A stretch of DNA of 32,000 bases from Microcystis aeruginosa NIES-843 (GTDB lineage Bacteria; Cyanobacteriota; Cyanobacteriia; Cyanobacteriales; Microcystaceae): assembly GCF_000010625.1 (NCBI RefSeq), contig NC_010296.1:1230001-1262000 (forward strand), written 5' to 3'. Under the pieces are notes generated by a model, which made no database searches, was not told the origin of the DNA, and saw nothing but the letters and a program-made list of their open reading frames with translations. Below, in pieces: positions 5,555 to 29,019 of the stretch (the stretch's first letter is position 1; each line of letters begins with the position of its first letter). Position numbers and translations under genes: made by a program.

Positions 5555-6883
5555 ATGCCGAAGAAAAAATATATTGTAGAGCTAACAGACTCCGAAAGAA
5601 CTGAACTCGAGCAGCTAACCAAGAAAGGAAAAATAGCAGCTTACAAAATGAACCATGCCAGAATACTACTTTTAGCAGACGTCAATCAACAGGAAGGTGG
5701 TTGGGAGCATCTCACTTACGCGATAAGTAATTATACTTAGCCTAAAAGCCACTCTTAATCGTGTCTTGGAACGAAATAGAGGCTTTTAAAGACTGCGTAC
5801 ATGGAGAATTAAAACAAGAATTACCCTCGAAAAGCCTATTTTTCCACTAAGTATTTATGCTCATTGCAAAGGTGAGATGCTCCCAGGTGGTTGGACTGAC
5901 TCGAAAATTAGTGAAGCCTTAAATGTTGCTCAAGCCACCATTGAGAGAGTACGACAAAGATTTGTCGAGTCAGGAATTGAATCATCATTAACTCGAAAAA
6001 AGCAAGAACATCGCCGTGCCAAAATTATCGATGGGGAAAAGGAAGCAGATCTGATTGCCATCGCTTGTAGTGAAACACCAACGGGACGAGCAAAATGGAC
6101 ACTTCAAATGCTGGCAGATAAAATGGTCGAACTTGAATATGTGGAAAAAATATCACGAGAAACCATCAGAAAAACCTTAAAAAAAATGAATTGAAACCAT
6201 GGCTGAATCAATCATGGGTCATTCCCCCAAAAGAATCAGCGGAGTTTGTCTGTGCCATGGAAGATGTCTTGGATATTTATCATAGTGAGTATGACCAGCA
6301 AAATCCCTGGCTGTGTTTTGATGAGAGTTGTCAACAATTAGTCAAAGAAACAAAAGAGAAAATACCAGCCGAACCGAGAGAACCAGAAAGGTATGACTAT
6401 CAATATGAGCGTAATGGTGTAGCCAATATGTTTATGTTTTTTGAACCATTACAAGGTTGGCGACATGTAGAAGTTACACAACAAAGGACGGCGAGCGATT
6501 ATGCACACCAAATGAAATATTTGGTTGATGAGCGTTATCCGGATGCCCAGAAAATTAGAGTAATTCAAGACAACTTAAATACTCATGTAAAAGCCTCATT
6601 ATATAAAGCCTTTGAACCGGAAGAGGCCAAGAGAATTTTAGATAAACTCGAATTTCATTACACTCCCAAACATGGCAGCTGGTTAAATATGGCAGAAATT
6701 GAGTTGAGCGTTTTGAATCGTCAATGTCTCGAGCGTCGTATCCCAGACATGGATAGTTTAAAACAAGAAATTAAGGCATGGGAAGAAAATCGAAATGAAA
6801 AGTCAAATTCAGTTGACTGGAGATTTACTACTGCTGATGCTCGTATTAAATTAAAAAAACTCTATCCCTCAATTCAAACTTGA
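5555..6883 (+). pseudogene. IS630-family DDE transposase, split by a MITE and by a frame change at an A8 run
   Basis: Three ORF pieces (5555-5740, 5877-6194, 6191-6883) join into one HTH plus DDE protein containing 'CFDES', 'VIQDNLNTH' and 'LNMAEIELS'. This requires removing 5703-5892 and applying a -1 shift at 6179-6186. Confidence 0.85.
5703..5884 (+). mobile_element. 182-bp MITE, copy A (TIR GGGAGCATCTCAC)
   Basis: It has perfect 13-bp terminal inverted repeats and an 8-bp duplication AGGTGGTT (5695-5702 and 5885-5892). It reads as identical to the copies at 9397-9578 and 27652-27833. Confidence 0.9.
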
Positions 6884-7033: not shown

Positions 7034-7306
7034 ATGACAGTACGACAACGACGTTATCCCAAAGAAGAACTAGCCCGGCGCGGGCAGCAGCTTTATGAGT
7101 CTGGTATTCGCCAGCAAGTGGAAGCGGGCAACGAGGGCAAAATTGTGGCAATTGACATCGAAACCGGGGATTTTGAGGTTGATGAAACCGTTATGGGTGC
7201 AACCGAGCGCCTATTTGAGCGCCGGCCGGATGCCCAGCCTTGGGGAATTCGGATTGGGTATCCCGCCGTTTATCATTTTGGTTCGAGAAGCCTGAAAAAG
7301 AACTAA
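7034..7306 (+). CDS. small conserved protein upstream of the retropepsin gene (family uncertain, possibly DUF5678-like)
   Basis: 90-aa ORF whose stop overlaps the next gene's ATG (TAATG at 7304-7308). Confidence 0.55.
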   Translation: MTVRQRRYPKEELARRGQQLYESGIRQQVEAGNEGKIVAIDIETGDFEVDETVMGATERLFERRPDAQPWGIRIGYPAVYHFGSRSLKKN

Positions 7307-7674
7307 TGATATACGGAGTCGTAAATTGGCGGCGTGAAGCCACACTCCCTTTGGTAGTTGCTAACTCAATCGGGCAAAGAGAAGTCATAAAAACCGTTAT
7401 TGATACGGGATTCGATGGGTTTTTATCTTTACCATCAGAAATCATTGCTCGTCTTGAACTACCCTGGACTATCTCGAATCTAGCAACCCTGGGGGATGGT
7501 AGTCAAGTATTATTTGACTTTTATGCTGGCACTGTTATTTGGGATGGGCAGTACCGCACGATTGATATTGCAGAATCGGAGACAGAACCACTGCTAGGAT
7601 TGGCTATGCTCTATGGCTATCGCTTACAAGTCGATAATATTGAGGGCGGTATTGTTAAAATTGAAGAGCTATGA
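7306..7674 (+). CDS. clan AA (retropepsin-like) aspartic protease
   Basis: It carries the 'VIDTGFDGFLSLP' D-T-G catalytic motif in a ~122-aa single-domain protein. The start is taken as ATG 7306 inside the track ORF 7240-7674. Confidence 0.75.
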   Translation: MIYGVVNWRREATLPLVVANSIGQREVIKTVIDTGFDGFLSLPSEIIARLELPWTISNLATLGDGSQVLFDFYAGTVIWDGQYRTIDIAESETEPLLGLAMLYGYRLQVDNIEGGIVKIEEL

Positions 7675-7864: not shown

Positions 7865-8050
7865 GGTTCTTCGGTTGGTGCTATGCGATGGACGGAGTTA
7901 TAAGGGATGAAACCTTTATAGAGAAGGACATTGATGCGATTTTTGTCAATTGTTTTCGATCTAGAACGAACTAATCAATAGAACTCTTGCCAGATAAGGA
8001 TTTAGTCGATTTATGCCACCCTATTGAACCATACCAAGTAACGAAGAACC
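7865..8050. mobile_element. ISL3-derived MITE, 186 bp
   Basis: Its ends GGTTCTTCGGTTGGTGCTATGC and GTAACGAAGAACC resemble the ISL3 ends in this window. The 8-bp duplication is TCAAAAAT (7857-7864 and 8051-8058). Confidence 0.85.
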
Positions 8051-8147
8051 TCAAAAATTAAAAGTCCTCTGCGCTATCCAGGGGGGAAATCCCGGGCAAT
8101 TAAGCAAATTCTGCCGCAAATTCCTGTGAATATTAGGGAATATCGAG

Positions 8148-8335
8148 GGCTCTTCGGTTTGTGTTATGCAATGGACGGGGGTTATAAGGGATGAAACCCT
8201 TATATAGAAAGACATTGCTGCGATTTTTGCCAATTGTTTTCGATCTAGAGCGAACTAATCAATTAAGTCTCTTGCCAGATAAGGATTCAGTCGATTTATG
8301 CCCCCATATCGAACCATACTAAGTAACGAAGAACC
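8148..8335. mobile_element. ISL3-derived MITE, 188 bp
   Basis: Its ends are GGCTCTTCGGTTTGTGTTATGC and GTAACGAAGAACC. The 8-bp duplication is ATATCGAG (8140-8147 and 8336-8343). Confidence 0.85.
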
Positions 8336-9219
8336 ATATCGAGAACCTTTTTTTGGTGGGGGTTCTGTATTTTTTGCTGTTAAGCAACTCTTTGATCAAC
8401 AAATAAAAACCTATTGGATTAATGACTTAAATTATGATTTATATTGTTTCTGGCAATGCGCTCAAGAAAATATTGAGTTATTGGTAGCAAAAATAACAGA
8501 AATTAAACAGGAATATGATAATGGACGAGAATTATTTCAAGATTTGACAAGGGAAGATTTAAAGTTAACCGACTTTGAGAAAGCGGTGCGTTTTTTTATT
8601 TTAAATCGGATTACTTTTTCGGGAACAGTGGATTCTGGTGGCTATTCCCAAGCGGCTTTTACCAGTAGATTTACTGATTCATCAATTGCCAGATTAACTC
8701 AAATTGCGCCGTTATTAGCATCGGTCAAAATTACTAACCAAGACTACGAAGAATTATTATTTGCTGAGGGAAAAGAAGTTTTTATCTTCCTCGATCCCCC
8801 CTACTATAGTGCCACAAAATCCCGTTTATACGGCGTAAGAGGGAATTTACATACCAGCTTCGATCATCAACGTTTTGCCGATAATATGCGTCAATGTCAG
8901 GCTAAATGGTTAATTACCTACGATGATTGTCCAGAGATACGAAAACTCTTTGATTTTGCCCATATTATCGAGTGGAATCTTCAGTATGGCATGAATAATT
9001 ATAAACAAGGAGCGGCGGCATCCGGCAGAGAATTAATGATCAAAAATTATTAGTGCCAGATTGTAGTGGAGTATTTATCTACCATAATTTAGCCGGCATT
9101 ATTGATGAAGATTTGGAAAAATCCTCAGCAGCCTTGCTAAGTAGTCATGCAAAATTAATTACCCAAATAAAAAATTAAGAAGTATAATACATAAAAAAAC
9201 GAAGCAGCAGGAAAATACA

Positions 9220-13517: not shown

Positions 13518-14477
13518 TCAAATTCCAGAGCCGTCATCAAACATTTCCTGTCGTAGTTGCGCCTGGGAGACAAAACCCCCCGGCGGCACACTGCGGGTTA
13601 ACCAAACATTTCCACCAATGGTTGCGCCCCGACCGATAGTTACCCGACCGAGAATCGTTGCACCTGAGTAAATCACCACATCATCTTCAATAATCGGATG
13701 ACGGGCTTGACCTTTGATTAAACTGCCCGATTCGTCCCGGGGAAAACTTTTCGCCCCGAGCGTGACCGCTTGGTAAAGGCGCACGCGGTCGCCAATCACC
13801 GTGGTTGCCCCAATCACCACCCCCGTCCCATGATCGATAAAGAAGCTATTGCCGATCGAGGCGCCGGGGTGAATGTCAATCCCCGTTAAGGAATGGCCAA
13901 TTTCACTGATAATCCGCGCCAACAGGGGCGAGTCCAAACGATACAGGGCATGGGCAATGCGGTGATAAGTGATTGCCGTTACCCCGGGGTAACAAAACAA
14001 TACTTCATCTAAATTTCTGGCCGCCGGATCACCTCGATAGGCCGCGGTGATATCGGTTTCCAGTAGAGCTTTCAGATGGGGTAATTGGGTGGCAAAGGCT
14101 TGTACCGTCCCTTGGGCGTGTTTCTCAATCTGGTCTGACGACCAGTGCAACTGTGACCCCAGCAACCACTGTTCGCGACAAACCTGGTGATGCAGCAGTT
14201 GCAAGACTTCATTGAGGGTATGACCGATAAAATAGCGGCTGGATGTTTCGCCTAAATCGGGATTGCCAAAGTGATAGGGAAAAAGAACGGCACGCAGTCG
14301 ATCAACAATCCGAAATAAGGCCTCACGGGAGGGCAAGGGGAAATGGCTTCGTGATTGAGACCAACTGTGGAACGACTCGCCACGAGGTTTAGACAATTGA
14401 GTGATAATCTCATCGAGATCCAAGGACAGGGTCGATTGGGAGAGAGCGCTGGAACTGCTCGGATGCTCGCTCGTCAT
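13518..14477 (-). CDS. cysE: serine O-acetyltransferase (long form)
   Basis: Hexapeptide-repeat C-terminus ('[25 protein letters not shown]', '[15 protein letters not shown]'). Its ATG overlaps the cysK stop (ATGA). Confidence 0.9.
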
Positions 14478-15454
14478 GCCACTAACCCTTGCTCATTAAA
14501 TACCCCCTGGAACAGGATGGAACTCAAATACCGTTCTCCGGAATCTGGCAAAATCACGACAATGGTTTTGCCTTGGTGTTCGGGTTGTTGTGCCAAGCGA
14601 GCGGCGACGGCGACGGCGGCACCGCAGGAAATGCCGGAGATAATCCCTTCTTCCTTGGCCAACCGTTGGGCATAAAGAATGGCCTCTTCGTTGGAAACGG
14701 TTTCAATCCCATCCACGAGGGATAAATCCAGAACTTCGGGAACAAACCCCGCCCCAATGCCCTGAATTTTGTGAGGGCCAGACTTTAAGGGCTGACCTGC
14801 CCGGGCTTGGGATAGTATGGGGCTGGCTTCTGGCTCCACTGCTACCGATAAAATCGGTTTTCCCCGGGTCTTTTTGACATAGCGCGAAACTCCCGTAATG
14901 GTTCCGCCCGTTCCCACACCCGACACGAGAATATCGATCGCCCCGTCTGTGTCCTGCCAAATTTCAGGGCCGGTGGTTTCCTCATGGATGCGGGGATTGG
15001 CAGCATTGCGGAACTGTTGCAACAACACATAGCGATCGGGATTAGACGCGGCAATTTCTTCTGCCTTTGCCACTGCTCCGGTCATTCCCTTAGTCCCTTC
15101 TGTTAACACCAGATTGGCTCCATAGGCGAGCAACAGTTTGCGCCGCTCCAAGCTCATGGTTTCAGGCATGGTCAGGGTGAGGGGAATCCCCTTAGCGGCG
15201 GCTACAAAGGCTAGGGCAATGCCTGTATTGCCACTGGTGGGTTCCACCAGTTCTTTGCCCGGCCCCAATAGTCCCCGTTGTTCCGCATCCCAGATCATGG
15301 CCGCACCAATACGACATTTGACCGAATAGGCCGGATTGCGACCTTCAATCTTGGCCAGAACCGTGGCGTGAGTGTTGCCAACGACTCGATTAAGGCGCAC
15401 TAGAGGAGTCCGCCCGATCGACAAACTGTTATCTGCGAACCATTTCTTACTCAC
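14474..15454 (-). CDS. cysK: cysteine synthase A (O-acetylserine sulfhydrylase)
   Basis: It carries '[11 protein letters not shown]', the PLP-lysine region '[11 protein letters not shown]' and '[10 protein letters not shown]'. It has a GTG start with GGAG upstream. Confidence 0.9.
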
Positions 15455-15506
15455 AAAATGGCAACTCCATGATTAAAATACGACAGTTCACCAGATTGGC
15501 TCATCT

Positions 15507-15550
15507 TGAATTCATTTTAAATTCATTTTGAATCCATTTAAAATTCATCC
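15507..15550 (-). promoter_or_regulatory. four tandem 11-bp direct repeats upstream of cysK
   Basis: The units GAATTCATTTT, AAATTCATTTT, GAATCCATTTA and AAATTCATCCT lie 53-96 bp upstream of the cysK start. A TATTTT/TTTAAT -10-like box with a poor -35 lies between the repeats and the gene. Confidence 0.45.
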
Positions 15551-15810
15551 TAGCCTATGCACTATCAACCTCTGGTCAAGCTAAACAAATCTTTACAATC
15601 AAGGGGGGTGGGCGATCGCTGAGGTTGAAGAATCAAGGTATAGGAGGGCGGGAAGTGGAGATAAGGGAGCGGGTTTTTCAAGTTGGATTGGGAGTTATAC
15701 TTGAGACTAAATCCGTTGAGCATAGGCTAGTTATGAGGAGAGGCACTCATGCAAGAGGCACTCATGCAAAGGGGAGAATAAATAATCAGTTTTTAATAAC
15801 CGGATTTAGT

Positions 15811-15915
15811 ATGATATACGGAGTCGTAAATTGGCGGCGCGAAGCCACACTCCCTCTGGTAGTTGCTAACTCAATCGGGCAAAGAGAAGTCATCAAAACC
15901 GTTATTGATACCGGA
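15811..15915 (+). pseudogene. 5' fragment of a retropepsin-like protease gene (paralog of 7306-7674)
   Basis: 'MIYGVVNWRREATLPLVVANSIGQREVIKTVIDTG' is near-identical to 7306-7410. Homology stops at the DTG codons. Confidence 0.8.
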
Positions 15916-15945
15916 GAGGCCTGGGTGCTAATATCGAGGCATTGA

Positions 15946-17270
15946 TCATCGAAAATTTGGGTCTGAAACCCCGTCGTTCTACGACGGCTTTACTGTTAAA
16001 TATTAGAACATTTACGAAATATATGCTAGAATGTGAGACATGGAAAAAGCCTACTCGTTCCGATTTTACCCCACACCCGAACAAGAGTCGCTATTGCGGC
16101 GCACGTTGGGCTGTGTAAGATTAGTTTACAACAAAGCTCTCCACGAACGAACACAAGCATGGTACGAAAGACAAGAAAGAGTAGGCTACGCTCAAACTTC
16201 TTCAATGCTAACCGATTGGAAAAAGCAAGAAGAATTAGACTTTCTCAATGAAGTAAGCTGTGTACCTTTACAACAAGGGTTAAGACATTTACAAACAGCT
16301 TTTACTAACTTCTTTGCTGGTCGTACTAAGTATCCTAACTTTAAGAAAAAACATCAGGGAGGAAGTGCCGAATTTACCAAATCTGCTTTTAAATTTAAAG
16401 ACAGACAAATCTATTTAGCTAAATGCACAGAACCTTTACCTATTCGATGGTCAAGACAAATACCAGACGGATGTGAACCAAGCACAGTAACAGTCAGATT
16501 ACATCCATCTGGACGTTGGCATATCTCAATAAGATTTGATGACCCAACGATTAAGCCATTACCAGTAACAGATAAAGCCATTGGAATTGACTTAGGAATT
16601 AGTAGCCTTGTCATTACCAGCGATGGTGACAAAGTATCTAATCCTGAGCATTTTAACAAGCATTATCGGAGACTGCGAAGAGCATCTAAAAGTCTTTCTC
16701 GAAAACAGAAAGGGTCAAAAAATCGGGAAAAAGCGAGAATCAAAGTAGCCAAGATTCACGCTCGAATCACCGATAACAGAAAAGACCATTTACACAAGCT
16801 AACCACTCAATTAGTTCGTGAAAACCAAACGATTGTTGTTGAGAATTTAGCCGTCAAGAATATGGTCAAAAACCCGAAATTATCTCAGGCAATATCTGAT
16901 GTAAGCTGGGGAGAAATTACCCGACAATTAGCCTATAAATGCCGTTGGTATGGGAGAAATTACATCGAAATAGATAGATGGTTTCCTAGCTCTAAAAGGT
17001 GTAGTAATTGCGGGTATATTGCCCTTGAAAATGCCGTTAAATGTTCGAGAGTGGGACTGTCCAGACTGTGGGACTCACCATGACCGAGATATTAACGCCA
17101 GTAAAAATATTTTGGCCGCAGGGCTTGCGGTGTCAGTCCGGGTCGCGACTATAAGACCAGAACAGAGTAAATCTGTTAAGGCAGGTGCGAAAAATCCTTC
17201 GGGAAAGAAACAGAAACCTAAATCGTGAGGTTTGGGAATCACCGTCCGTTCACGGCGGTGAGGATGTCAA
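15946..17270 (+). mobile_element. IS200/IS605-family tnpB-only (IS1341-type) element, copy 1
   Basis: The boundaries are taken from where copies 1 and 2 diverge. There is a left-end hairpin at 15971-15987 (CCGTCGT-TCT-ACGACGG) and a right-end hairpin at 17240-17260. No tnpA gene is present. Confidence 0.8.
16040..17228 (+). pseudogene. tnpB: TnpB (RuvC-like RNA-guided nuclease family), with a frame break near 17018-17024
   Basis: RuvC motifs present are 'IGIDLGI', 'VVENL' and '[11 protein letters not shown]', with a zinc finger 'CSNCG...CPDCG'. The ORFs 16040-17083 and 17019-17228 need a +1 shift to join. Confidence 0.85.
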
Positions 17271-17290
17271 TCAATCGCCTCTACCTGAAT
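17100..17290 (+). ncRNA. putative omega RNA (reRNA) scaffold plus guide of TnpB copy 1
   Basis: By analogy with characterised TnpB elements, the RNA overlaps the tnpB 3' end and the right end. A UUCG hairpin sits at 17195-17204 and a terminal hairpin at 17240-17260. The guide would be the flank at 17271-17290. The 5' limit is not determined. Confidence 0.4.
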
Positions 17291-17303
17291 CCTAAAGATA
17301 TGG

Positions 17304-18725
17304 GGCTCTTCGGGAATTGTTATGCAAATAATTAACTTAAAATAAAATTCGATGAGAGCACCTACGCTCAAAAGTAGCTGAAATTCATACAGGGAAAGAC
17401 TTAAGGCACAAACAGGTTAATACCAAAAGATAGACAATTGAGTTAAGATTTGATATAATAGCCAAAAACGAGATTATTTTACTTATGATACTTGACAAAT
17501 TTTTGAACCTAAAAGGAACCTGTATTCAAGGCTATCTACACCTAGAAAATATCGGTATAGTTTGCCGAATCGAATCGAAAAATCAAAAAGCAACCTGTCC
17601 TCGTTGTGGGTTAGAGAGCGATAAACTCCACCAAAATCATCGACATTTAGTCAAAGATTTACCAATCTCAGGTCAACCAGTATACCTACAAATTAATCGT
17701 CGTCAATTTAAGTGCGATAATTGTCAGAGACCCTTTAGCGAAGAGTTAGATTTTGTCGCCAAGAAACGAACCTATACGAAAAGACTAGCCGCAAATATAC
17801 TCGAACAATTAAAAGAAGGAGATATTTTAAATGTTAGTCGAATAAATGACGTAACGGAAGAAGAGATTCAAAGAATGATAGAGGACATCGCCGAAGAAAT
17901 TACAGAGCCAGACCTATCGGAATTAAAAAGACTAGGAATTGATGAAATCGCTCTAGTCAAAGGACAAAAAAATTACTGTGCGGTTTTAGTAAATTTAGAT
18001 ACGGGAAAACTAATAGCTATTCTAGAGAAGCGAACACAAGAAGAGTTGAGGGAAACGCTTACTGGGTGGGGAAAAGAGGTGTTAGAGCAAATTGAAGAAG
18101 TGAGCATAGACCTTTGGTTGCCCTATAAAAATTTGGTGAAAGAATTGATGCCATCGGCCGAGGTAGTCGCCGATAGATTCCATGTCATGAAACAAATTAA
18201 TCAAGAGTTAGACGAACAGAGAAGAGCAGAAAAAAGAGCCGTAGAAGCGCAGAAAAATAAAAAACAGAAAGCAGAAAAAGAAGCCAAGCTAGAAGTTTTA
18301 AAGCGAAGTAAATATAGCCTGTTAAAAAATGAAGAAGATTTAACGGAACCCCAAAAAATTAAACTAGAAGCTATCAAAGAAAATTTGACAAATTTGAAAA
18401 AGATGCAGGAATTAAAGGAAGAATTTAGAAAGATTTATGAAACCTCAGAGAATCCGACAGAGGGAATGCTATCCATCTCGGAATGGTTGGCAAAATCCTC
18501 CAGTGTTTTTACCAAGAGTTGTCAAACAATCCGAAACTGGTTTGGAGAAATAATTAGTTATTTCGAGCGAAGGACAACGAATGGGGTGGTCGAGGGAATC
18601 AACAATAAACTTAAACTAATAAAACGGAGAGGCTATGGCTTGAGAAACTTTCGGAATTTTTGGGTTAGAAGTATGTTATCTTGGCATCTTGTATGTTGAT
18701 TTAGCATAAAGGGTAACGAAGAGCC
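17304..18725 (+). mobile_element. ISL3-family insertion sequence, copy 2 (1422 bp)
   Basis: Same termini as copy 1. The flanks AGATATGG and AAATATTA are not a duplication. Confidence 0.9.
17485..18699 (+). CDS. ISL3 family transposase
   Basis: 404 aa, differing from the 1942-3156 product at only a handful of residues. Confidence 0.95.
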   Translation: MILDKFLNLKGTCIQGYLHLENIGIVCRIESKNQKATCPRCGLESDKLHQNHRHLVKDLPISGQPVYLQINRRQFKCDNCQRPFSEELDFVAKKRTYTKRLAANILEQLKEGDILNVSRINDVTEEEIQRMIEDIAEEITEPDLSELKRLGIDEIALVKGQKNYCAVLVNLDTGKLIAILEKRTQEELRETLTGWGKEVLEQIEEVSIDLWLPYKNLVKELMPSAEVVADRFHVMKQINQELDEQRRAEKRAVEAQKNKKQKAEKEAKLEVLKRSKYSLLKNEEDLTEPQKIKLEAIKENLTNLKKMQELKEEFRKIYETSENPTEGMLSISEWLAKSSSVFTKSCQTIRNWFGEIISYFERRTTNGVVEGINNKLKLIKRRGYGLRNFRNFWVRSMLSWHLVC

Positions 18726-19011
18726 AAATATTAGGAGGTTCTGAAATTGAAAGCAGAAAATTGATGTGTCTAGATAAAACTGCCGGGATCAGTTTCGTCG
18801 TAGGTATGGTGCTAATCGTTATAATTGGGATGGATTCGGCGGGGTTTTTCCAGTTTCTGTGTGGAAACGATGTCTATAGTGATAGTTTATTGTGCAAAAT
18901 AGTCCTAAAAGTCTTGCCCAATAAGCATTTCACGATGCCATAATCAAAAATTATCACACACAGTCAAGAAGAGCCTCGCCGGTAGTTAACTTAACTAAAA
19001 AAGGAACAAGC

Positions 19012-20336
19012 TTGACATCCTCACCGCCGTAAACGGACGGTGATTCCAAAACCTCACGATTTAGGTTTCTGCTTCTTTCCCTTGCGGGGTTCCGCACCTG
19101 CCTTAACAGATTTACTCTGTTCTGGTCTTATGGTCGCTCTACAGACTGACACCGCAAGCCCTGCGGCCAAAATATTTTTACTAGCGTTAATATCTCGGTC
19201 ATGGTGTGTTCCACAGATTGGACAGTCCCACTGTCGAACATTTAACGGCATTTTCAAGGGCAATATACCCGCAATTACTACACCTTTTAGAGCTAGGAAA
19301 CCATCTATCTATTTCGATGTAATTTCTCCCATACCAACGGCATTTATAGGCTAATTGTCGGGTGATTTCTCCCCAGCTTACATCAGATATTGCCTGAGAT
19401 AATTTCGGGTTTTTGACCATATTCTTGACGGCTAAATTCTCAACAACAATCGTTTGGTTTTCACGAACTAATTGAGTGGTTAGCTTGTGTAAATGGTCTT
19501 TTCTGTTATCGGTGATTCGAGCGTGAATCTTGGCTACTTTGATTCTCGCTTTTTCCCGATTTTTTGACCCTTTCTGTTTTCGAGAAAGACTTTTAGATGC
19601 TCTTCGCAGTCTCCGATAATGCTTGTTAAAATGCTCAGGATTAGATACTTTGTCACCATCGCTGGTAATGACAAGGCTACTAATTCCTAAGTCAATTCCA
19701 ATGGCTTTATCTGTTACTGGTAATGGCTTAATCGTTGGGTCATCAAATCTTATTGAGATATGCCAACGTCCAGATGGATGTAATCTGACTGTTACTGTGC
19801 TTGGTTCACAGCTTTCTGGTATTTGTCTTGACCATCGAATAGGTAAAGGTTCTGTGCATTTGGCTAAATAGATTTGTTTGTCTTTGAACTTAAAAGCAGA
19901 TTTAGTAAATTCAGCACTTCCTCCTTGATGTTTTTTCTTAAAGTTAGGATACTTAGTACGACCAGCAAAGAAGTTAGTAAAAGCTGTTTGTAAATGTCTT
20001 AACCCTTGTTGTAAAGGTACACAGCTTACTTCATTGAGAAAGTCTAATTCTTCTTGCTTTTTCCAATCGGTTAGCATTGAAGAAGTTTGAGCGTAGCCTA
20101 CTCTTTCTTGTCTTTCGTACCATGCTTGTGTTCGTTCGTGGAGAGCTTTGTTGTAAACTAATCTTACACAGCCCAACGTGCGCCGCAATAGCGACTCTTG
20201 TTCGGGTGTGGGGTAAAATCGGAACGAGTAGGCTTTTTCCATGTCTCACATTCTAGCATATATTTCGTAAATGTTCTAATATTTAACGGTAAAGCCGTCG
20301 TAGAACGACGGGGTTTCAGACCCAAATTTTCGATGA
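19012..20336 (-). mobile_element. IS200/IS605-family tnpB-only element, copy 2 (inverted relative to copy 1)
   Basis: Collinear with copy 1 along its full length, with the same left-end and right-end hairpins. Confidence 0.8.
19054..20242 (-). pseudogene. tnpB: TnpB, with the same frame break as copy 1
   Basis: ORFs 19199-20242 and 19054-19263 show the same split point ('[12 protein letters not shown]...' versus '[18 protein letters not shown]'). Confidence 0.85.
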
Positions 20337-20643
20337 GCCAAGAAAAATCCTCTGATACTCATCGTCAATCTGTAACTGTGAAGCATAGTTGGAATGGAGT
20401 GGTCAAGCTACGTCCCCAACCTCCAAAGGCTTCCCAGACAACCCCTAAACCTAGTCCTAATCTAACAAATCCCTCGGCAACTTCAGGTGGTAATGGGTCT
20501 AGCAGCGCGGGTGAATCAGACAGTAGTAACTGATAACGTCCGAACGTCTGAACGTCCTCCCTACCCCGCTACGCACTCAGGGACTCATGGGGGTTTGTTG
20601 AAGACGGCTGTTGGCCAGGATCTCTTATAATGGGGAAGTCGGA

Positions 20644-20892
20644 ATGTTTTTTCTTCCTATGCCAGTAAGCGCTGAAGCTCTTAAGCAAGACTTGGATCGA
20701 CTGACTGATAATCAGCTTCAGCAAGTAGCTGATTTTATTGCCTTCTTAAAGTTTCGCAGTCAGCGTCATCAGGCTGTCCTCGATCCAATGCAACTGGCCG
20801 ATCTGTTTGCGGAGTTTGCTAATGAAGATCGCGCCTTTGCTGAAGAAGGTATGAATGACTATGCAGTAATACTCCATCAAGAAGACCAATGA
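20644..20892 (+). CDS. MazE/DUF2281-like antitoxin
   Basis: The small ORF ends in ATGA, overlapping the mazF-like start. It contains 'LTDNQLQQVADFIAFLKFR'. The start is uncertain (ATG 20644 or ATG 20659). Confidence 0.6.
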   Translation: MFFLPMPVSAEALKQDLDRLTDNQLQQVADFIAFLKFRSQRHQAVLDPMQLADLFAEFANEDRAFAEEGMNDYAVILHQEDQ

Positions 20893-21245
20893 TCACTAAT
20901 CCTCTGAAACGGGGTGAAGTCTGGTTAGCCGACCTCAATCCAACTCAAGGTTCTGAAGAAGCGGGCATTCGTCCCGTCATCATTTTCCAGAATGACCTTG
21001 TTTCCCAGTTCTCAACTACGATCATTGCTATTCCGCTCACCACCAACCAACGTCGCGCTGCTTTGCCTATATGCTTACTGATAGAACAAGGTAATGGTGG
21101 ACTCGGCCAAGATTCTGTTGCCCTATGTTTTCAGATGAGAGTGCTGGATAAAACTCGTTTGATCCGCACACTGGGACAACTGAGTCCCGAAATAATTGCC
21201 CAATTGGAAGAAGTGGTTTTGCTAACCTTAGGATACGAGTCCTAA
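20889..21245 (+). CDS. mazF: MazF/PemK-family type II toxin endoribonuclease
   Basis: 'RGEVWLADLNPTQGSEEAGIRPVIIFQND' and 'IIAIPLTT' form the canonical PemK/MazF N-terminal pattern. Confidence 0.85.
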   Translation: MITNPLKRGEVWLADLNPTQGSEEAGIRPVIIFQNDLVSQFSTTIIAIPLTTNQRRAALPICLLIEQGNGGLGQDSVALCFQMRVLDKTRLIRTLGQLSPEIIAQLEEVVLLTLGYES

Positions 21246-21385
21246 ATGTGGAATTAAATGGAATTCTTAAGCAATCCCAAGTTACAGTTGAGGAGTTTAT
21301 TGAGCATCTCTAGTGTCTAAATAGGTCTTGCGGCGGATAGCCTCAACACCCAAACCAAACTGCGGACAGTAAATTAGTCAATAAA

Positions 21386-22195
21386 ATGTCAAAAATTAAA
21401 AGTCCTCTGCGTTATCCAGGGGGGAAATCCCGGGCAATTAAGCAAATTATGCCGCAAATTCCTGTCAATATTAGGGAATATCGAGAACCTTTTTTTTGTG
21501 GGGGTTCTGTATTTTTTGCTGTTAAGCAACTCTTTGGACAACAAATAAAAACCTATTGGATTAATGACTTAAATTATGATTTATATTGTTTCTGGCAATG
21601 CGCTCAAGAAAATATTGAGTTTTTGGTAGCAAAAATAACAGAAATTAAACAGAAATATGATAAGGGACGAGAATTATTTCAAGATTTGACAAGGGAAGAT
21701 TTAAAGTTAACCGACTTTGAGAAAGCGGTGCGTTTTTTTATCTTAAATCGGATGACTTTTTCGGGAACAGTCGATTCCGGGGGTTATTCCCAAGCGGCTT
21801 TTAACAGTAGATTTACTGATTCATCAATTGCCAGATTAACGCAAATTGCGCCGTTATTATCATCGGTAAAAATTACTAACCAAGACTACGAAGAATTATT
21901 ATTTGCTGAGGGAAAAGAAGTTTTTATCTTCCTCGATCCCCCCTACTATAGTGCCACAAAATCCCGTTTATACGGCGTAAGAGGGAATTTACATACCAGC
22001 TTCGATCATCAACGTTTTGCCGATAATATGCGTCAATGTCAGGCTAAATGGTTAATTACCTACGATGATTGTCCAGAGATACGAAAACTCTTTGATTTTG
22101 CCCATATTATCGAGTGGAATCTTCAGTATGGCATGAATAATTATAAACAAGGAGCGGCGGCATCTGGTAGAGAATTAATGATCAAAAATTATTAG
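21386..22195 (+). CDS. Dam-like (D12 class) N6-adenine DNA methyltransferase, intact paralog
   Basis: 269 aa with 'LRYPGGKSR', 'EPFFCGGSVFF' and 'FLDPPYY'. Confidence 0.85.
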   Translation: MSKIKSPLRYPGGKSRAIKQIMPQIPVNIREYREPFFCGGSVFFAVKQLFGQQIKTYWINDLNYDLYCFWQCAQENIEFLVAKITEIKQKYDKGRELFQDLTREDLKLTDFEKAVRFFILNRMTFSGTVDSGGYSQAAFNSRFTDSSIARLTQIAPLLSSVKITNQDYEELLFAEGKEVFIFLDPPYYSATKSRLYGVRGNLHTSFDHQRFADNMRQCQAKWLITYDDCPEIRKLFDFAHIIEWNLQYGMNNYKQGAAASGRELMIKNY

Positions 22196-22266
22196 TGCGA
22201 TGCCGAAGGCACTGGGTAGCAGTAAGCTAATCTTATATGTTGGGTTGACGACTGTACTTCATCCTA

Positions 22267-23136
22267 TTAATTTAACCATTGGTGCAAATCTTCTAAATCC
22301 GAAAAATCCAATAAAGCAAGAGCTAAATTATCCAATTGATTAGGATTTAACTGTTTAATTTTTTGTTCTACCTTTAAAGGAATAGAACCTAGTTTTAAGT
22401 TTAGCTGACGCAAAATTAGGCTTTTTTTAGCCGATAATTCTCCTTCCTCTCTGCCTTCCTCTCTGCCTTCCTCTCTGCCTTCCTCTCTGCCTTCCTCTAA
22501 AGCTTCTTGATAAACCTTAGTTTCTCTTAAATCACTTAAACTAAACATAGCTTCTATCTCCTTACGGTTTAATTTCGGTAATTTATAAATGAGAATTGTC
22601 TCAATTAATTCTAGAATGTCCTGTCTTTTTAAAGACTCCTGAAATTGTTGTCTAACTTGTTGAATCAGTTCTTTTCCTTGGGCTAAGGTGTTTGGTTCCG
22701 ATTCCACAATTAATTGTAACACTTTTACCCCCAGAGAATCCCCCTCATCTAATTGATTCAGATAATAACAGTTAACCCGTCCTGACTCAAAGAATTCTTG
22801 ATAACGAGATTTGGGACTATTTTCAATTCCAGGATGAGGATGAATGATCACCCCTTGCCAATTGTTATTACTCTCACTTTGATGAAAATAGAGAAATATT
22901 TCACTAAAAAAGCGCGAGTAAAACCGTTCATCTTTTTGAAATTGTACCTCAACAAAGTAAATCGGTTCATTAAGGTTATCAGGAAGAAAGACCCCATCTA
23001 AACGAAAAGCGAGTTGTTTAACTTCTAGGGAGGAAAATTGATAATGATTGACGGTTTCAGGGGGAAGATTCAGCAAATCAAAGAAACTTTCAGGAAAAGT
23101 CTGAAAGAGACGATAGAAAATACTGTCCGTTTTCAC
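22267..23136 (-). CDS. Rpn-family PD-(D/E)XK nuclease/putative transposase (DUF2887-type N-terminus, DUF4351-type tail), paralog R1
   Basis: It has 'MKTDSIFYRLFQTFP', a 'LDGVF...YFVEVQFQK' core, an (EEGR)x4 linker and the tail '...LALALLDFSDLEDLHQWLN'. The start is GTG. Confidence 0.8.
   Translation of the reverse strand: MKTDSIFYRLFQTFPESFFDLLNLPPETVNHYQFSSLEVKQLAFRLDGVFLPDNLNEPIYFVEVQFQKDERFYSRFFSEIFLYFHQSESNNNWQGVIIHPHPGIENSPKSRYQEFFESGRVNCYYLNQLDEGDSLGVKVLQLIVESEPNTLAQGKELIQQVRQQFQESLKRQDILELIETILIYKLPKLNRKEIEAMFSLSDLRETKVYQEALEEGREEGREEGREEGREEGELSAKKSLILRQLNLKLGSIPLKVEQKIKQLNPNQLDNLALALLDFSDLEDLHQWLN
22443..22498 (-). repeat. 12-bp tandem repeat CTTCCTCTCTGC x4.7 (encodes the EEGR linker)
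   Basis: This direct tandem repeat lies inside R1. The copy number and Lys/Arg composition differ in every paralog. Confidence 0.9.
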
Positions 23137-23345
23137 TCAATTTTGTCCCTCAATGACTTGTGGTACTTGTTCAATATCTAAGTCTAAAGTTTGGGCAATT
23201 TGTTCTACACTTCACCCTAAAGCCAATAAACGGGGAATAGAGTTTAATTTAGCGGTTAATGCTCCTTCCTCTCTGCCTTCCTCTAAAATATCTTGATAGA
23301 TGACTGATTCTCTCATAATGTCACTCCGAAGGATTTTTTTTATCG
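23137..23345 (-). pseudogene. Rpn-family C-terminal tail fragment F1 (gamma-type tail)
   Basis: It reads 'RETIKKILRSDIMRESVIYQDILEEGREEGALTAKLNSIPRLLALG*SVEQIAQTLDLDIEQVPQVIEGQN' with an in-frame TGA. It has no N-terminal domain and ends immediately before the R1 GTG start. Confidence 0.6.
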
Positions 23346-24207
23346 TCTCTCGATTGTAATTCTTCGATCGCGTCGGGGGATAAATCAGTAAATCGGGCAA
23401 TTTCTGAGATAGGAAAACCAGCAGATAGCATTTTTAGAGCAATTTGTCGGGCTTTTTCTTCTTTACCTTCCTCTTTGCCTTCCTCTCTGCCTTCCTCTAA
23501 AATATCTTGATAGATGACGGATTCTCTCATAATGTCACTCCGAAGGATTTTTTTAATCGTCTCTCGATTTAATACTAACCCAGCGAGAATACTGGTAGCG
23601 GCGGCGAGATTGCTTTGCACCTGTTTTTGAGAGATAAGCTAAACGGCGCTTAACCTGCATGATCCAACAGCTATAACCCTTTTGGAGTCTATATCGGTGA
23701 TCCGAAGTAAAAGCCGTTTAGCTTAGTTTCTAGAGAACGGGACACCTGACTTAACACCTGTTCGGGATCATCGGTATTGCTGAGGACGGCAAAGGGTAAT
23801 AAACCGGGTTGATGGAAAAATTGTGGCGTATTTTCTTCCCAAAGACGGATGACTTGGAAGGAATGAAAGGTTTCCCCCAGACGGAAAGTATTTTCTTGCA
23901 CTAGCGGGGAATCACTACGTCGCAGATAAATTACCACTTGACGCATTGGTTTTTGGGGATGACGACGATAGACGCGAATGCGATAATCGAGCATTCGGAA
24001 AGGAATCTTGGAGTCGGGGTCGGTTTGAAACTCGGTATGGAGAATTAATTGCTCTGACTGCAAAAAAATCAGAGAATCGGCACGAATGGGGTCTAATTGT
24101 CATTCCGTCGGGTCGAGGACGGTTAAGGGGAGGGGAGAACCCAATAACCAAGTGGCTAGATCATCGGAGAAGTTTTCGGCAATAAATTTACAAATATTAT
24201 CAAACAT
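23321..24207 (-). pseudogene. Rpn-family nuclease paralog R2 (MFDNICKF type), with a nonsense codon and a MITE insertion
   Basis: Codon 36 is TGA (24100-24102), where paralog R3/R4 has TTA. An 87-bp MITE sits at 23637-23723. The core motif 'ILHTEFQTD' is present. Confidence 0.8.
23637..23723. mobile_element. 87-bp MITE with a TA duplication (IS630/Tc1-type target)
   Basis: It has 11-bp perfect terminal inverted repeats (AGCTAAACGGC / GCCGTTTAGCT) and is flanked by TA (23635-23636 and 23724-23725). Confidence 0.8.
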
Positions 24208-24391
24208 CGTCAGGGATTACTTTCCGTTTCTCCTAGGATACCCTCGGTCGCCGGTGTTCACATCCTGTATTCGCCGTAACTGTTGCCGAGGAGAATCGTA
24301 GCGCAGAATACATTATAGGCAAAATTCAATTCTACTCATCGACTAAATTGTATGGATATCGGCAAATTTGTCACATCTTCCCAGAAATTTC

Positions 24392-24420
24392 TTGACAATT
24401 GCTAGAGGAAAGGGTATATT
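24392..24420 (+). promoter_or_regulatory. sigma70-type promoter for the NHL-repeat gene
   Basis: TTGACA (24392-24397), a 17-nt spacer, then TATATT (24415-24420), lying 24 nt upstream of ATG 24444. Confidence 0.5.
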
Positions 24421-24443
24421 AGGGGCAGATTTTCTGAAGTTTT

Positions 24444-25472
24444 ATGTCCCTATCTAAAGTTATTAATCATGGGGGGCGGGAGAAGCGTAGCTTATCAAAG
24501 GCTCTGCTGAAATCCTTTTCCCTAGTCACGGCCACTGCGATCGGATGTATTAGTGTCGCCACCAGTGCCACTGCGGCCAGTTTTTCCTTCGCTTTCGGTA
24601 GCCAAGGTACGGGGAACGGTGAGTTCGAAAGCCCCCGTGGTATCGCCGTCAGTAGAAGTGGTGATATCTATGTAGCCGATACGGATAACAATCGGGTACA
24701 GGTATTCAACTCTAGTGGTGTCTTCCAGTCCGCTTTCGGTAGCTTCGGTACGGGGACCGGTCAGTTCCGAAGCCCCTACGGTATCGCCGTCAGTAGAGGT
24801 GGTAATGTCTATGTAGCCGATACGGACAACAATCGGGTACAGGTATTCGACTCTAGTGGTGTCTTCCAGTCCGCTTTCGGTACCAATGGTACGGGGACCG
24901 GTCAGTTCCAAGGCCCCTACGCTATCGCGGTCGGTAGCAGTGGTAATGTCTATGTAGCCGATACGTTCAACAATCGCATACAGGTATTCAACTCCACTGG
25001 TGTCTTCCAGTTCGCTTTTGGTAGCTCCAGCCCCTACGGTATCGCTGTCGGTAGCAGTGGTAATATCTATGTAGCCGATACGTTCAACAATCGCATACAG
25101 GTATTCAACTCCACTGGTGTCTTCCAGTTCGCTTTCGGTAGCCAAGGTTTGGGGAACGGTGAGTTCAATAGCCCCTTCGGTATCGCTGTCGATAGCAGCG
25201 GTTATATCTATGTAACCGATACGTTCAACGATCGCGTACAGGTATTCAACCCCAGTGGTGTCTTCCAGTCCACTTTCGGTAGCTTCGGTACGGGGAACGG
25301 TGAGTTCAGTCTGCCCTACGGTATCGCTGTCGGTAGCCGTGGTAATATCTATGTAGCCGATACGGCCAACAATCGCGTACAGGTATTCAGAACGCCCGAA
25401 CCTTCTAGTATTATCGGATTAGGCATACTAGGGGGGGGTTTAGTGGTGCGTCGCCTCGCTAAACGTGGTTAA
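24444..25472 (+). CDS. six-blade NHL-repeat beta-propeller protein with signal peptide and PEP-CTERM anchor
   Basis: It has six repeats of 'GIAV..SGNIYVADT.NNR(V/I)QVF..SGVFQ.AFG'. The C-terminus 'PEPSSIIGLGILGGGLVVRRLAKRG' is a PEP-CTERM signal. Confidence 0.85.
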   Translation: MSLSKVINHGGREKRSLSKALLKSFSLVTATAIGCISVATSATAASFSFAFGSQGTGNGEFESPRGIAVSRSGDIYVADTDNNRVQVFNSSGVFQSAFGSFGTGTGQFRSPYGIAVSRGGNVYVADTDNNRVQVFDSSGVFQSAFGTNGTGTGQFQGPYAIAVGSSGNVYVADTFNNRIQVFNSTGVFQFAFGSSSPYGIAVGSSGNIYVADTFNNRIQVFNSTGVFQFAFGSQGLGNGEFNSPFGIAVDSSGYIYVTDTFNDRVQVFNPSGVFQSTFGSFGTGNGEFSLPYGIAVGSRGNIYVADTANNRVQVFRTPEPSSIIGLGILGGGLVVRRLAKRG

Positions 25473-25860
25473 TCGGTGTGGAGTGGGGAGACGGTTAAAA
25501 TTTTCCTAATTCCCCACCCTTTGCGGTTAAAAGCTTTAATTGTCCTGCTGCCTTTGTAATTCCTCGATCGCGTCGGGGGATAAATCAGTAAATCGGGCAA
25601 TTTCTGGGATAGGAAAGCCAGCAGATAGCATTTTTAGAGCAATTTGTCGAGCTTTTTCCTCTTTGCCTTCTTGCAATCCTTCTTGTCGTCCTTTTTGTAG
25701 TCCCTTTTCCTCGCCTTCCTCTAAAATATCTTGATAGATGACGGATTCTCTCATAATGTCACTCCGAAGGATTTTTTTAATCGTCTCTCGATTTAATACT
25801 AACCCAGCGAGAATACTGGTGGCGGCGGCGAGATTGCTTTGCACCTGTTTTTGGGAGATA

Positions 25861-26810
25861 TAGTCATTTCAAATAAGTGTGAGACGAGGGAAAAATAAGG
25901 TAAAATCAAGAGAAACGAGCAACCCATACAGAAAAATGTCTTATAGCCTAGACTTGAGAAAAAAAGTAATCGATTATGTAGAGAATGGGGGAAGCATAAC
26001 CAAAGCCGCCGCTCTATTTAATATAGGAAGAGCGACGATATATAGATGGCTAGGTAGGGAAAAACTGGAAGCAACAAAGGTAAAACACCGTCAGAGAAAG
26101 CTGGACTGGAAAGCACTGTCAAAAGATGTCCAAGAAAATCCCGAGGCAAGATTAAGAGACAGAGCCGAGAAATTTGGAGTGAGACCAAGTGCCATTTGCT
26201 ATGCCTTAAAAAACATGAAAGTTACCAGAAAAAAGAAGGAACTTCGTTATAGAGAAAGAAACCGAGAAGAAAGAATGAAATACTACAGAGTGCTGAGAGA
26301 ATTGATTAAAATATATGGAAGTGAAAGCCTTGTATTTATTGATGAGTCAGGGTTTGAAGAATTTCAAGCCTGTTTTTATGCTTGGTCAAAAAAAGGGAAG
26401 AAAGTCTTTGGAGATAGACAAGGAAAACGAGGAAAAAGAGAGAACCTTGTCGCTGGTAGAAGAAAGGGAAAAAAAGACTTTATTGCACCGATGGTATTTA
26501 CGAGAAGCCTGAATGCCGAAGGTTTTGAAGGGTGGTTATCTTTATATTTGTTGCCCTCTCTAACCATAACATCAGTATTAATTATGGATAATGCACCAAT
26601 TCATCGGAAGACAGTCATTAAACAACTGGTAGAGGAAGCAGGTCATCAGGTCGTGTTTTTGCCAAAATACTCTCCTGATTTAAATGATATCGAACATGAT
26701 TTTAGTGCATTAAAGAGGGCAAGAATGTATGCTCCTGTGGGGACACCCCTTGATGAAATTATTCGTACTTATTGTGTCGCCTAGTGTCTCGTTCTTATTT
26801 GAAATAACTA
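25861..26810 (+). mobile_element. IS630-family element no. 3 (950 bp)
   Basis: The terminal repeats are TAGTCATTTCAAATAAG and TAGTTATTTCAAATAAG (reverse complement). The TA duplication is at 25859-25860 and 26811-26812. Confidence 0.85.
25936..26784 (+). CDS. IS630-family transposase
   Basis: It has the HTH 'ITKAAALFNIGRATIYRWL' and the DDE-type motifs 'VFIDESGF', 'LIMDNAPIH' and 'LNDIEHDF'. ATG 25936 is preferred over GTG 25879. Confidence 0.85.
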   Translation: MSYSLDLRKKVIDYVENGGSITKAAALFNIGRATIYRWLGREKLEATKVKHRQRKLDWKALSKDVQENPEARLRDRAEKFGVRPSAICYALKNMKVTRKKKELRYRERNREERMKYYRVLRELIKIYGSESLVFIDESGFEEFQACFYAWSKKGKKVFGDRQGKRGKRENLVAGRRKGKKDFIAPMVFTRSLNAEGFEGWLSLYLLPSLTITSVLIMDNAPIHRKTVIKQLVEEAGHQVVFLPKYSPDLNDIEHDFSALKRARMYAPVGTPLDEIIRTYCVA

Positions 26811-27286
26811 TAGTTTCTAGAGAACGGGATACCTGACTTAACACCTGTTCGGGATCATCGGTATTGCTGAGGACGGCAAAGGGTAATAAACCGGGATGAT
26901 GGAAAAATTGCGGCGTATTTTCTTCCCAAAGACGGATGACTTGAAAAGAATGAAAAGTTTCCCCCAGACGGAAAGTATTTTCTTGTACTAGCGGGGAATC
27001 ACTACGTCGCAGATAAATTACCACTTGACGCATTGGTTTTTGGGGATGACGACGATAGACGCGAATGCGATAATCGAGCATTCGGAAAGGAATCTTGGAG
27101 TCGGGGTCGGTTTGAAATTCAGTATGGAGAATCAATTCCTCTGACTGCAAAAAAATCAGAGAATCGGCGCGAATGGGGTCTAATTGTAATTCCGTCGGGT
27201 CGAGGACGGTTAAGGGGAGGGGAGAACCCAATAACCAAGTGGCTAGATCATCGGAGAAGTTTTCGGCGATAAATTTACAAATATTA

Positions 27287-28283: not shown

Positions 28284-28643
28284 TCAATTTTGTCCCTCAA
28301 TGACTTGTGGTACTTGTTCAATATCTAAGTCTAAAGTTTGGGCAATTTGTTCTACACTTCACCCTAAAGCCAATAAACGGGGAATAGAGTTTAATTTAGC
28401 GGTTAATGCTCCTTCCTCTAAAATATCTTGATAGATGACGGATTCTCTCATAATCTCACTCCGAAGGATGTTTTTAATCGTCTCTCGATTTAATGCTAAC
28501 CTGGCGAGAATACTGGTGGCGGCAGCGAGATTGATTTGCACCTGTTTGTCGAGGACGGTTAAGGAGAGGGGAGTACCCAATAACCAAGTGGCTAGATCAT
28601 CGGAGAAGTTTTCGGCAATAAATTTACAAATATTATCAAACAT
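28284..28643 (-). pseudogene. Rpn-family derivative R6 with the nuclease core deleted (N-terminal 32 aa fused to a gamma-type tail)
   Basis: It reads 'MFDNICKFIAENFSDDLATWLLGTPLSLTVLD|KQVQINLAAATSILA...EEGALTAKLNSIPRLLALG*SVEQIAQ...'. The in-frame TGA is at 28359-28361, and the tail ends at the TGA adjacent to the R5 GTG. Confidence 0.65.
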
Positions 28644-29019
28644 TGCGAGCGTTCTGCCTTTGTAATTACTACCATCCACATCAATAAATTCAAGATTACT
28701 TGCTATCAATTCCTAAACAATTAAGCTAAATAAACCCCCGATCATTAGTAAAAGTCTTTGATTTCATGGTAATCTTTGACCCAAGCTTACGAAATATTAT
28801 ATCACCGATTAAGATAGATCATGATTTAATCTTGTTTTAAGTTCACAAACATAATTAACGGTAGCATGATCTGTCTTAATAATTAACTTTACTTCAGCCA
28901 ATAATTGACCAGATATATAGGTTTCATCTTGAATAGTTTCCTGAAAATTAGGTAAGGATTCCAGACAGGTCAAATATTTATGAAATAGGGGATGTTTGGG
29001 CTACATAAGCAATAGAAAG

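Follow-up and report, generated by a model that had tools for sequence, protein, structure and literature searches.

The window analysed here, a stretch of 32,000 nucleotides (nt) from Microcystis aeruginosa NIES-843 (contig NC_010296.1, positions 1,230,001 to 1,262,000), carries two convergent copies of a TnpB-only insertion sequence of the IS200/IS605 family (IS1341-type). They raise the question of why, near the 3′ end of tnpB, one copy reads TCC-TTCG-GGA and the other CCC-GCAA-GGG. A reading made from the letters without database searches (the sequence-only reading) had taken this tetraloop swap as a sign of selection on RNA structure, as expected for the omega RNA, or right-end element RNA (reRNA), that guides TnpB. 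We found RNA-level constraint on the sense strand, a fixed target-adjacent motif (TAM) and identity between guides and targets. Positions 17108-17270 and their minus-strand twin 19174-19012 are very probably the omega RNA scaffold of a TnpB-only element that is abundant in Microcystis.

The two elements are 1321 bp each (15950-17270 on the plus strand and 19012-20332 on the minus strand). With TCAT included, a repeat search gives inverted arms of 1325 nt (15946-17270 and 19012-20336) that are 97% identical. Copy 1 is W1 and copy 2 is W2 in our alignments, and a copy 2 coordinate equals 36282 minus the copy 1 coordinate. The features that define the elements and their surroundings are the following.

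15946-15949, plus strand: TAM (target motif) TCAT of copy 1, outside the element, from the empty sites L081-L086.
15950-17270, plus strand: copy 1 element, 1321 bp, from the inverted repeat, the comparison of empty and occupied sites, and Pfam domains of the repaired protein.
19012-20332, minus strand: copy 2 element, whose TAM TCAT is the reverse complement of 20333-20336.
15971-15987, plus strand: left-end subterminal hairpin CCGTCGT-TCT-ACGACGG of copy 1, read directly and flagged as a stem-loop.
17271-17290, plus strand: guide of copy 1, with a length of 16-20 nt assumed.
18992-19011, minus strand: guide of copy 2, from the empty site L083.

Species-representative genomes were scanned once with the repaired TnpB as query, which gave 80 loci with 69-95% protein identity, hosted by Microcystis, Planktothrix, Microcoleus, Limnoraphis, Calothrix, Nostoc and others. 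Nearly all of them can be aligned over the element's final 191 nt, and the alignment A2 consists of 72 distinct right ends (L004, identical to L003 at the hairpin H6 described below, was left out). All 72 relatives finish with ...GATGTCAA (...TAGTCAA in L065) and their flanks diverge from the very next base, which fixes the right end of copy 1 at 17270. On the other side, TCAT adjoins the left end in 24 of the 25 alignable family members, and the bases farther upstream are random. The left-end hairpin (15971-15987) is conserved across the left ends of relatives and, by analogy with IS608, may be bound by the transposase TnpA (PMC3201880).

Unoccupied copy 1 sites were sought in metagenomes with a pattern built from both copy 1 flanks, and six contigs were obtained (L081-L086). 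Their sequence is ...GGCATTGATCAT joined at the insertion point to TCAATCGCC..., also written ...GGCATTGATCAT joined to TCAATCGCCTCTACC..., and comparison with the occupied site places the insertion 3′ of TCAT without target duplication. Guide 1 is the 20 nt after TCAT; it is exact in L082, L084, L085, and L086, and has one mismatch in L083 and two in L081, all at guide positions 15-16. L083 also has an exact vacant copy 2 site (TCAT directly followed by GCTTGTTCCTTTTTTAGTTA on the minus strand), and L086 is colinear with window positions 13625-23636 except for three insertions. These empty-site sequences fix the TAM as TCAT, the element boundaries, and both guides. For both copies, the copy-specific flank past the right end is the TAM-adjacent sequence of the vacant site, as required of an omega RNA guide; the homing model demands this same relation with the vacant allele (10.1101/2023.03.14.532601). 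The sequence-only reading had proposed the same right end and the same guides (17271-17290 and the reverse complement of 18992-19011), and both match the vacant sites beside TCAT.

Three of the four contigs with a vacant copy 2 site carry a 6-nt tandem duplication (ATAAGC) and a single nucleotide polymorphism in the TAM-proximal part of the guide 2 target (L084 at about 6024-6035, L085 at about 1488-1499, and L086 at 2907-2918, compared with L083 at 7553-7590). Among these four contigs, guide 2 is matched exactly in L083 only. The duplication allele could be a cleavage-escape allele or a plain polymorphism.

Insertion 3′ of a fixed target, the absence of target-site duplication, the subterminal hairpins at both ends (15971-15987; 17240-17260) and the lack of terminal inverted repeats are the features of an IS200/IS605 element of the IS1341 type. 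No tnpA gene lies inside the element. The two copies differ at 35 of 1325 positions in the pairwise alignment, 18 of them between 17099 and the right end. The differences form the blocks 17139-17150 and 17190-17200 plus four single sites, and the blocks are shared with other copies of the element. The claim that most differences fall in the last ~130 nt of tnpB stood as a strong enrichment (hypergeometric P = 2.5e-8), although "most" was slightly generous for 16 of 35 (46%).

The region in question has the same orientation as tnpB, covers the 3′-terminal ~40 codons of the open reading frame (ORF) and stops at the element's right end, the location expected of an omega RNA. Among the 72 right ends it has a conserved secondary structure, with six helices supported by covariation on the sense strand over ~163 nt (17108-17270). 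Its parts are listed below, on the plus strand of copy 1 unless stated otherwise.

17108-17270, plus strand: probable omega RNA scaffold of copy 1, from synonymous constraint and covarying helices.
19012-19174, minus strand: probable omega RNA scaffold of copy 2, 90% identical to that of copy 1 (row W2 of A2).
17115-17121 / 17125-17131, plus strand: H1, inside the AAGLAV codons.
17148-50 / 17184-86, plus strand: H3, part of a composite stem (17148-17186) with H4 and H5.
17157-58 / 17180-81, plus strand: H4, in the composite stem.
17161-66 / 17172-77, plus strand: H5, in the composite stem.
17195-17204, plus strand: H6 of copy 1, UCC-UUCG-GGA allele (stem 17195-97 / 17202-04), from direct reading and alignment.
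19079-19088, minus strand: H6 of copy 2, CCC-GCAA-GGG allele, from direct reading and alignment.
17217-24 / 17229-36, plus strand: H7, with a GUGA (GNRA) loop that holds the tnpB stop codon TGA (17226-17228).
17239-48 / 17253-61, plus strand: H8, the terminal hairpin, with a bulged U17245 and a UUCA loop (UUUA in copy 2).
17262-17270, plus strand: 3′ tail GGATGTCAA, nearly invariant in the 72 sequences and ending in the right-end cleavage tetranucleotide TCAA.

The helices were noted by eye in A2 and then counted, with two kinds of control, 3′ partners slid by 1-3 columns and 500 shuffles. Standard pairs are formed in 93.4% of the cells, against 35-48% in the slid controls. Changes on both sides of a pair were found in 250 cells and 23 pairs, against 23-53 cells and 9-14 pairs in the slid controls, and none of the 500 shuffles reached the observed values. 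We also applied a test that is blind to the structure, mutual information with average product correction (MIp) over all variable columns. The seven top-scoring column pairs are all Watson-Crick pairs of the model, and the other high scorers are neighbouring bases within codons. The covariance analysis of right ends that the sequence-only reading had asked for thus gives covariation support over the last ~163 nt of the element.

H1 provides the two highest MIp pairs, and 99% of its cells are paired. Pair 38-50 (GC 38 / CG 27 / UA 6) joins the third positions of two Ala codons and pair 41-47 (AU 48 / UA 12 / GC 11) the third positions of an Ala and a Leu codon; the changes are all synonymous and the AAGLAV peptide is constant. 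The composite stem varies at pairs 71-107 (CG 51 / GC 18 / AU 2), 72-106 (CG 37 / UG 17 / UA 16), 79-103 (CG 70 / GC 2), and 85-97 (CG 60 / GC 7). In H7, whose loop contains the stop codon in 58 of the 72 sequences, the varying pairs are 155-194 (UA 38 / CG 16 / UG 16), 182-191 (AU 53 / GC 13 / UA 5), and 184-189 (CG 56 / AU 7 / UA 4). Those of H8 are 201-234 (CG 44 / AU 19 / GC 3), 210-230 (CG 38 / GC 17 / AU 5), and 212-228 (GC 32 / CG 12). Between the two copies, the terminal hairpin CACCGTCCG-TTCA/TTTA-CGGCGGTG differs at 17251 only, which is in the loop, just as had been read from the letters.

The coding sequence carries a second signal. Synonymous diversity was measured in 42 intact genes as codon entropy normalised to degeneracy and compared by Mann-Whitney test; the gene body has a mean of 0.73 and the part from codon I357 on a mean of 0.35 (P = 2.7e-10). 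The drop is abrupt, as the codons ATT TTG (17108-17113) have no synonymous variation in the 42 genes and the codons just upstream vary freely. We therefore let the constrained scaffold begin at 17108, which gives it a length of about 163 nt. Relatives with a frameshift in the tail (L035, L045, L076, and L080) retain the downstream nucleotide sequence. The ATTTTG at 17108-17113 stands directly 5′ of H1, and it could be a processing site or a strand of a tertiary pairing, for example with GGGAAU at 17234-17239.

Folding programs were less informative than the alignment. Single-sequence folds of 211 nt are weakly better than shuffles (z = -2.5 and -1.9), and RNAalifold alone recovered H1, H7, and H8 in part only; its extra pairings were not adopted. 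One of these (GTCT/AGAC, 17136-39/17154-57) is invariant or varies on one side only and is incompatible with H3 and H4, which covary; the other, a long-range closure (17088-93/17263-68), is likewise invariant or altered on one side only. An alternative copy 1 hairpin AGTC...GACT (17135-38/17148-51) fails in 18 relatives with an AGT variant, which satisfy H3 instead.

The tetraloop swap itself concerns H6. TCC-TTCG-GGA is read directly at 17195-17204 in copy 1. For CCC-GCAA-GGG in copy 2 the sequence had been given correctly; its extent had not, since 19079-19089 is 11 nt with a fourth C and the hairpin occupies 19079-19088. The two hairpins had been placed at essentially one position and are offset by 1 nt in the alignment of the copies, and the peptides AKNPSGKK and AEPRKGKK that had been assigned to them agree with the ORF translations. 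As an insertion of 15-28 nt, H6 occurs in 34 of the 72 right ends; the other 38 lack it and read GGTGCTA-GAAGC. The UUCG allele was found in Microcystis copies only (W1, L002-L005, and L027). The GCAA allele is present in L001, L006, L007, and L037, with an identical hairpin but one 5′ lead-in base changed in L009 and L061; besides Limnoraphis, it is other copies from Microcystis that carry GCAA. Each allele already circulates in further Microcystis copies, which makes the swap a block exchange rather than local compensatory drift.

A hairpin is predicted in 19 of the 20 distinct H6 variants, and 17 of the 19 are no less stable than the average shuffle. The stems have 3-6 bp and nearly always consist of short runs of C and G, and the loops, often of the GNRA or UUCG type, are GCAA, GUAA, GAAA, UUCG, CUAG, or UCU; compensated stems occur in L069 (UCCA/UGGA), L072 (CCUC/GAGG), and L074 (UCCCCU/AGGGGA). 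The encoded peptides vary (EPRKG, KSPRG, KNPSG, KTRKG) and so does the codon phase of the C-run, which argues against a peptide motif as the cause of H6. Support for H6 is the persistence of the hairpin and not pair statistics. Single folds of copy 2 preferred UGCGG/CCGCA over CCC-GCAA-GGG, so single folds are unable to settle H6. H6 is a facultative expansion and not a core element; to judge from ISDra2, whose stem 3b is unresolved, it probably protrudes into solvent and would be dispensable (PMC10097598).

The tnpB genes of both copies are split by a shared frameshift.

16040-17228, plus strand: tnpB of copy 1, as the frameshift-split ORFs 16040-17083 and 17019-17228.
19199-20242 and 19054-19263, minus strand: the two ORFs of tnpB of copy 2, with the identical frameshift.

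One extra base is present in the block 17022-17027 (19255-19260 in copy 2) relative to intact relatives: W1, W2, and L027 read GCCCTTGAAAATG and intact Microcystis relatives read G-CTGAGAAAATG. L027 is a copy from M. ichthyoblabe with the identical one-base insertion. The repaired protein has the domains of a TnpB (Pfam: HTH_OrfB_IS605 PF12323, 6e-21; OrfB_IS605 PF01385, 8e-31; Cas12f1-like_TNB zinc ribbon PF07282, 1e-25). The ORF is not the uninterrupted one expected of TnpB, as ORF 1 stops at 17083, before HDRD, the last RuvC motif, is readable in frame; the frameshift costs both copies this motif as well as half the zinc ribbon. We set aside programmed +1 frameshifting, since the site has neither a stop nor a slippery context and the extra base is absent from intact relatives. 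The exact ORF products fall in a cluster of 4002 members (90% identity), all from Microcystis and named "RNA-guided endonuclease InsQ/TnpB".

Given the shared frameshift, any activity of either copy's RNA requires TnpB in trans, from intact paralogues. The TnpB-defective lineage has multiplied, and has presumably been mobilised and served in trans. Work on ISDra2 and Geobacillus elements suggests how an intact system would operate (PMC8612924, PMC10097598, PMC10278001, 10.1101/2023.03.14.532601). The RNA would be processed from the tnpB transcript and taken up by TnpB, the 3′ guide derived from the flank would direct cleavage of the TCAT-adjacent empty site left by excision, and recombination after cleavage would reinstate the element. 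The RNAs of both copies in the window would act in this way only with TnpB made by intact paralogues.

Several results weigh against the omega RNA reading. Both tnpB genes are frameshifted, H7 of copy 2 has one U-U mismatch (19048), and copy 1 departs at 17139-17144 from bases that are at least 90% conserved (CCGGGTC vs CTGTGGA), a variant common to L035 only; the mismatch and these changes suggest that both copies may be decaying. No promoter or processing site could be shown by a promoter scan. Within H6 (helix 6), strict double changes are few because the stems are mostly CCC/GGG. The whole window gave no Rfam hit at gathering thresholds, including the TnpB-linked RF03065 and RF02998 (cited in 10.1101/2023.03.14.532601). 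A pseudoknot adjoining the guide is conserved in TnpB and Cas12 RNAs. Here, the candidate partners for the GUC at -5 to -3 are GAC at 17155-57 or GAGAUAUU at 17087-94 (the latter from RNAalifold), and all are invariant or change on one side. Leaving the pseudoknot aside, the predicted RNA of the Microcystis element is a TnpB omega RNA by every computational criterion except Rfam membership.

Could the hairpins instead be single-stranded DNA signals for the Y1 transposase TnpA? The right end does have the layout of IS608, with the foot of the hairpin at 17260 and TCAA ending the element 10 nt on (PMC3201880), the left end has a matching hairpin (15971-15987), and the G-T pairs are likewise possible on the transposed top strand. 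H8 with TCAA is also an expected TnpA recognition module, so the covariation of H8 is not purely an RNA signal, and the IS608 likeness makes it very likely that H8 and the tail also serve TnpA as DNA. Such signals account for H8 and the tail only, however. The strongest covariation is carried by H1, H3-H5, H6, and H7, at 35-155 nt into the element, a stretch with no known TnpA contact. DNA signals in place of RNA structure are thus quite unlikely as an explanation of the conserved hairpins, and roles in TnpA binding and in RNA are not mutually exclusive. Free drift or recombination in the disordered, lysine-rich C-terminal tail of TnpB, with tetraloop hairpins that are incidental, would fit the variable tail peptide and an insert that stays in frame in 32 of its 34 carriers (L076 and L080 have one extra base and an early end). 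It would also fit differences that come in blocks common to other copies, which points to recombination, and single hairpins that are each modestly better than shuffles (p = 0.003-0.1). We consider it highly improbable, given that synonymous diversity is halved over exactly that region, covariation occurs at synonymous sites, nucleotide conservation outlasts the tail frameshifts, and the H6 hairpin recurs across variants despite differing peptides and a C-run that shifts its codon phase.

The two copies might still be dead relics with a structure inherited from functional ancestors and neither RNA made or used in this genome. In favour are the damage to TnpB in both copies, which lack the final RuvC motif and half the zinc ribbon, the U-U mismatch in H7 of copy 2, and the altered conserved bases of copy 1. 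On the other hand, at least three copies of the frameshifted lineage are present across two genomes (W1, W2, and L027), so it went on spreading after the mutation; the scaffolds show no further damage, and the 4002-member Microcystis protein cluster makes TnpB in trans plausible. That both copies are relics is possible, though on balance doubtful. For the omega RNA itself, the selection on RNA structure that the sequence-only reading had proposed is supported by the covariation, and the location of the region, the variable flank as guide, and the TAM-adjacent match in the empty sites all agree with a TnpB omega RNA.

The omega RNA of ISDra2 from Deinococcus radiodurans (PMC8612924, PMC10097598) likewise includes the 3′ part of tnpB, extends to the right end, takes its guide from flanking DNA and has its TAM 5′ of the left end. 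Its last stem, stem 4, which H8 matches in geometry, has a UUUA tetraloop at -20 to -17 (PMC10097598), and the Microcystis scaffold has a UUUA-type loop at -22 to -19, so that both stand ~20 nt before the guide. Each also has one flexible and dispensable internal stem, 3b in ISDra2 and, by analogy, H6 in the Microcystis element. The two differ in scaffold length (116 nt vs ~163 nt) and TAM (TTGAT vs TCAT), and have no detectable sequence similarity. The 5′ hairpin H1, the optional H6, and the H7 that holds the stop codon are extra in Microcystis, and the pseudoknot and triple helix could not be demonstrated in its scaffold. Multi-copy non-autonomous TnpB-only elements of another phylum have omega RNAs defined by covariance models and guides that match the empty donor site, and their transposase and nuclease share the TAM. 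They differ in TAM and host phylum, and no TnpA partner was identified for the Microcystis element. IS608 of Helicobacter pylori (PMC3201880) shares the subterminal hairpin with the cleavage tetranucleotide TCAA 10 nt 3′ of its foot and the insertion 3′ of a fixed tetranucleotide without target duplication. It differs in its target (TTAC vs TCAT) and in the spacing of left hairpin and target (19 nt vs about 21 nt), and the Microcystis element has no tnpA.

At E <= 10, an Rfam scan of the region gave HgcC (RF00062) with 11 bits against a gathering threshold of 50 (E = 4.1), so it is not a member. The weak likeness extends over 17184-17283 and concerns a terminal module of GGAAYC, a hairpin with a UUNA loop, and GAGGAKGUCA; HgcC is described in archaea, and the match in Microcystis is below the Rfam criterion. 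This sub-threshold match hints at a right-end module shared with archaeal elements.

The space between the two copies holds an element that is outside the TnpB system.

17304-18725, plus strand: ISL3-family insertion sequence (Pfam DDE_Tnp_ISL3).

It is 99% identical to an inverted copy at 1916-3337 and has no 8-bp target duplication. L086 lacks it and has 267 nt in its place (2359-2625). As these 267 nt of native sequence are missing at the right side of the ISL3 element, it appears to have inserted with an adjacent deletion. Inversion between the two ISL3 copies was rejected as the cause of the missing target duplication, since the flanks do not fit and L086 shows the adjacent 267-bp loss. 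The motif GGCTCTTC stands at 18970-18977, 34 nt from the right end of copy 2, and the real ISL3 end is 33 nt from copy 1; the symmetry is coincidental. Targeted ISL3 insertion, suggested by this motif 33-34 nt beyond both right ends, was dismissed because the motif at 18970-18977 is native in L086 and occurs at no other locus.

The left flank of copy 1 (15625-15945) ends an ORF with a VIDTG motif that resembles a retropepsin-type protease. A partial paralogue of this ORF, 96% identical, lies at 7306-7410; the pair diverges before the insertion point, for which reason a paralogous "empty site" at 7290-7520 was set aside. Further along the window are dense direct-repeat families (D1-D10, 22450-28700) and a duplicated gene segment, a 269-aa ORF at 21386-22195 with a near copy around 8050-9058 (8051-9058 / 21343-22255). 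Such repeats and duplication are expected for the repeat-rich Microcystis genome.

The hairpins are an ordinary, well-supported example of a known system, and the understanding of how TnpB systems work is unchanged. A search of the available literature found no paper describing the RNA of this Microcystis TnpB family. The analysis provides a covariation-supported structure, a TAM, exact boundaries, and guides for a TnpB family with thousands of copies in Microcystis, a bloom-forming genus, and with cyanobacterial relatives. No curated RNA model matches the family, so these are useful for annotation. They also point to a candidate for a compact editor with a short TAM, in which H6 could be deleted when minimising the guide RNA. 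A more speculative and in our view unlikely idea is that H6 is an exchangeable identity module. Its UUCG-type and GNRA-type caps, found side by side in one genome and passed between copies in blocks, would adjust how the omega RNAs are processed or how stable they are, or would allot them to different TnpB sublineages in the same cell. If it were true, TnpB-defective elements such as both copies described here would persist as guide-only parasites of intact paralogues.

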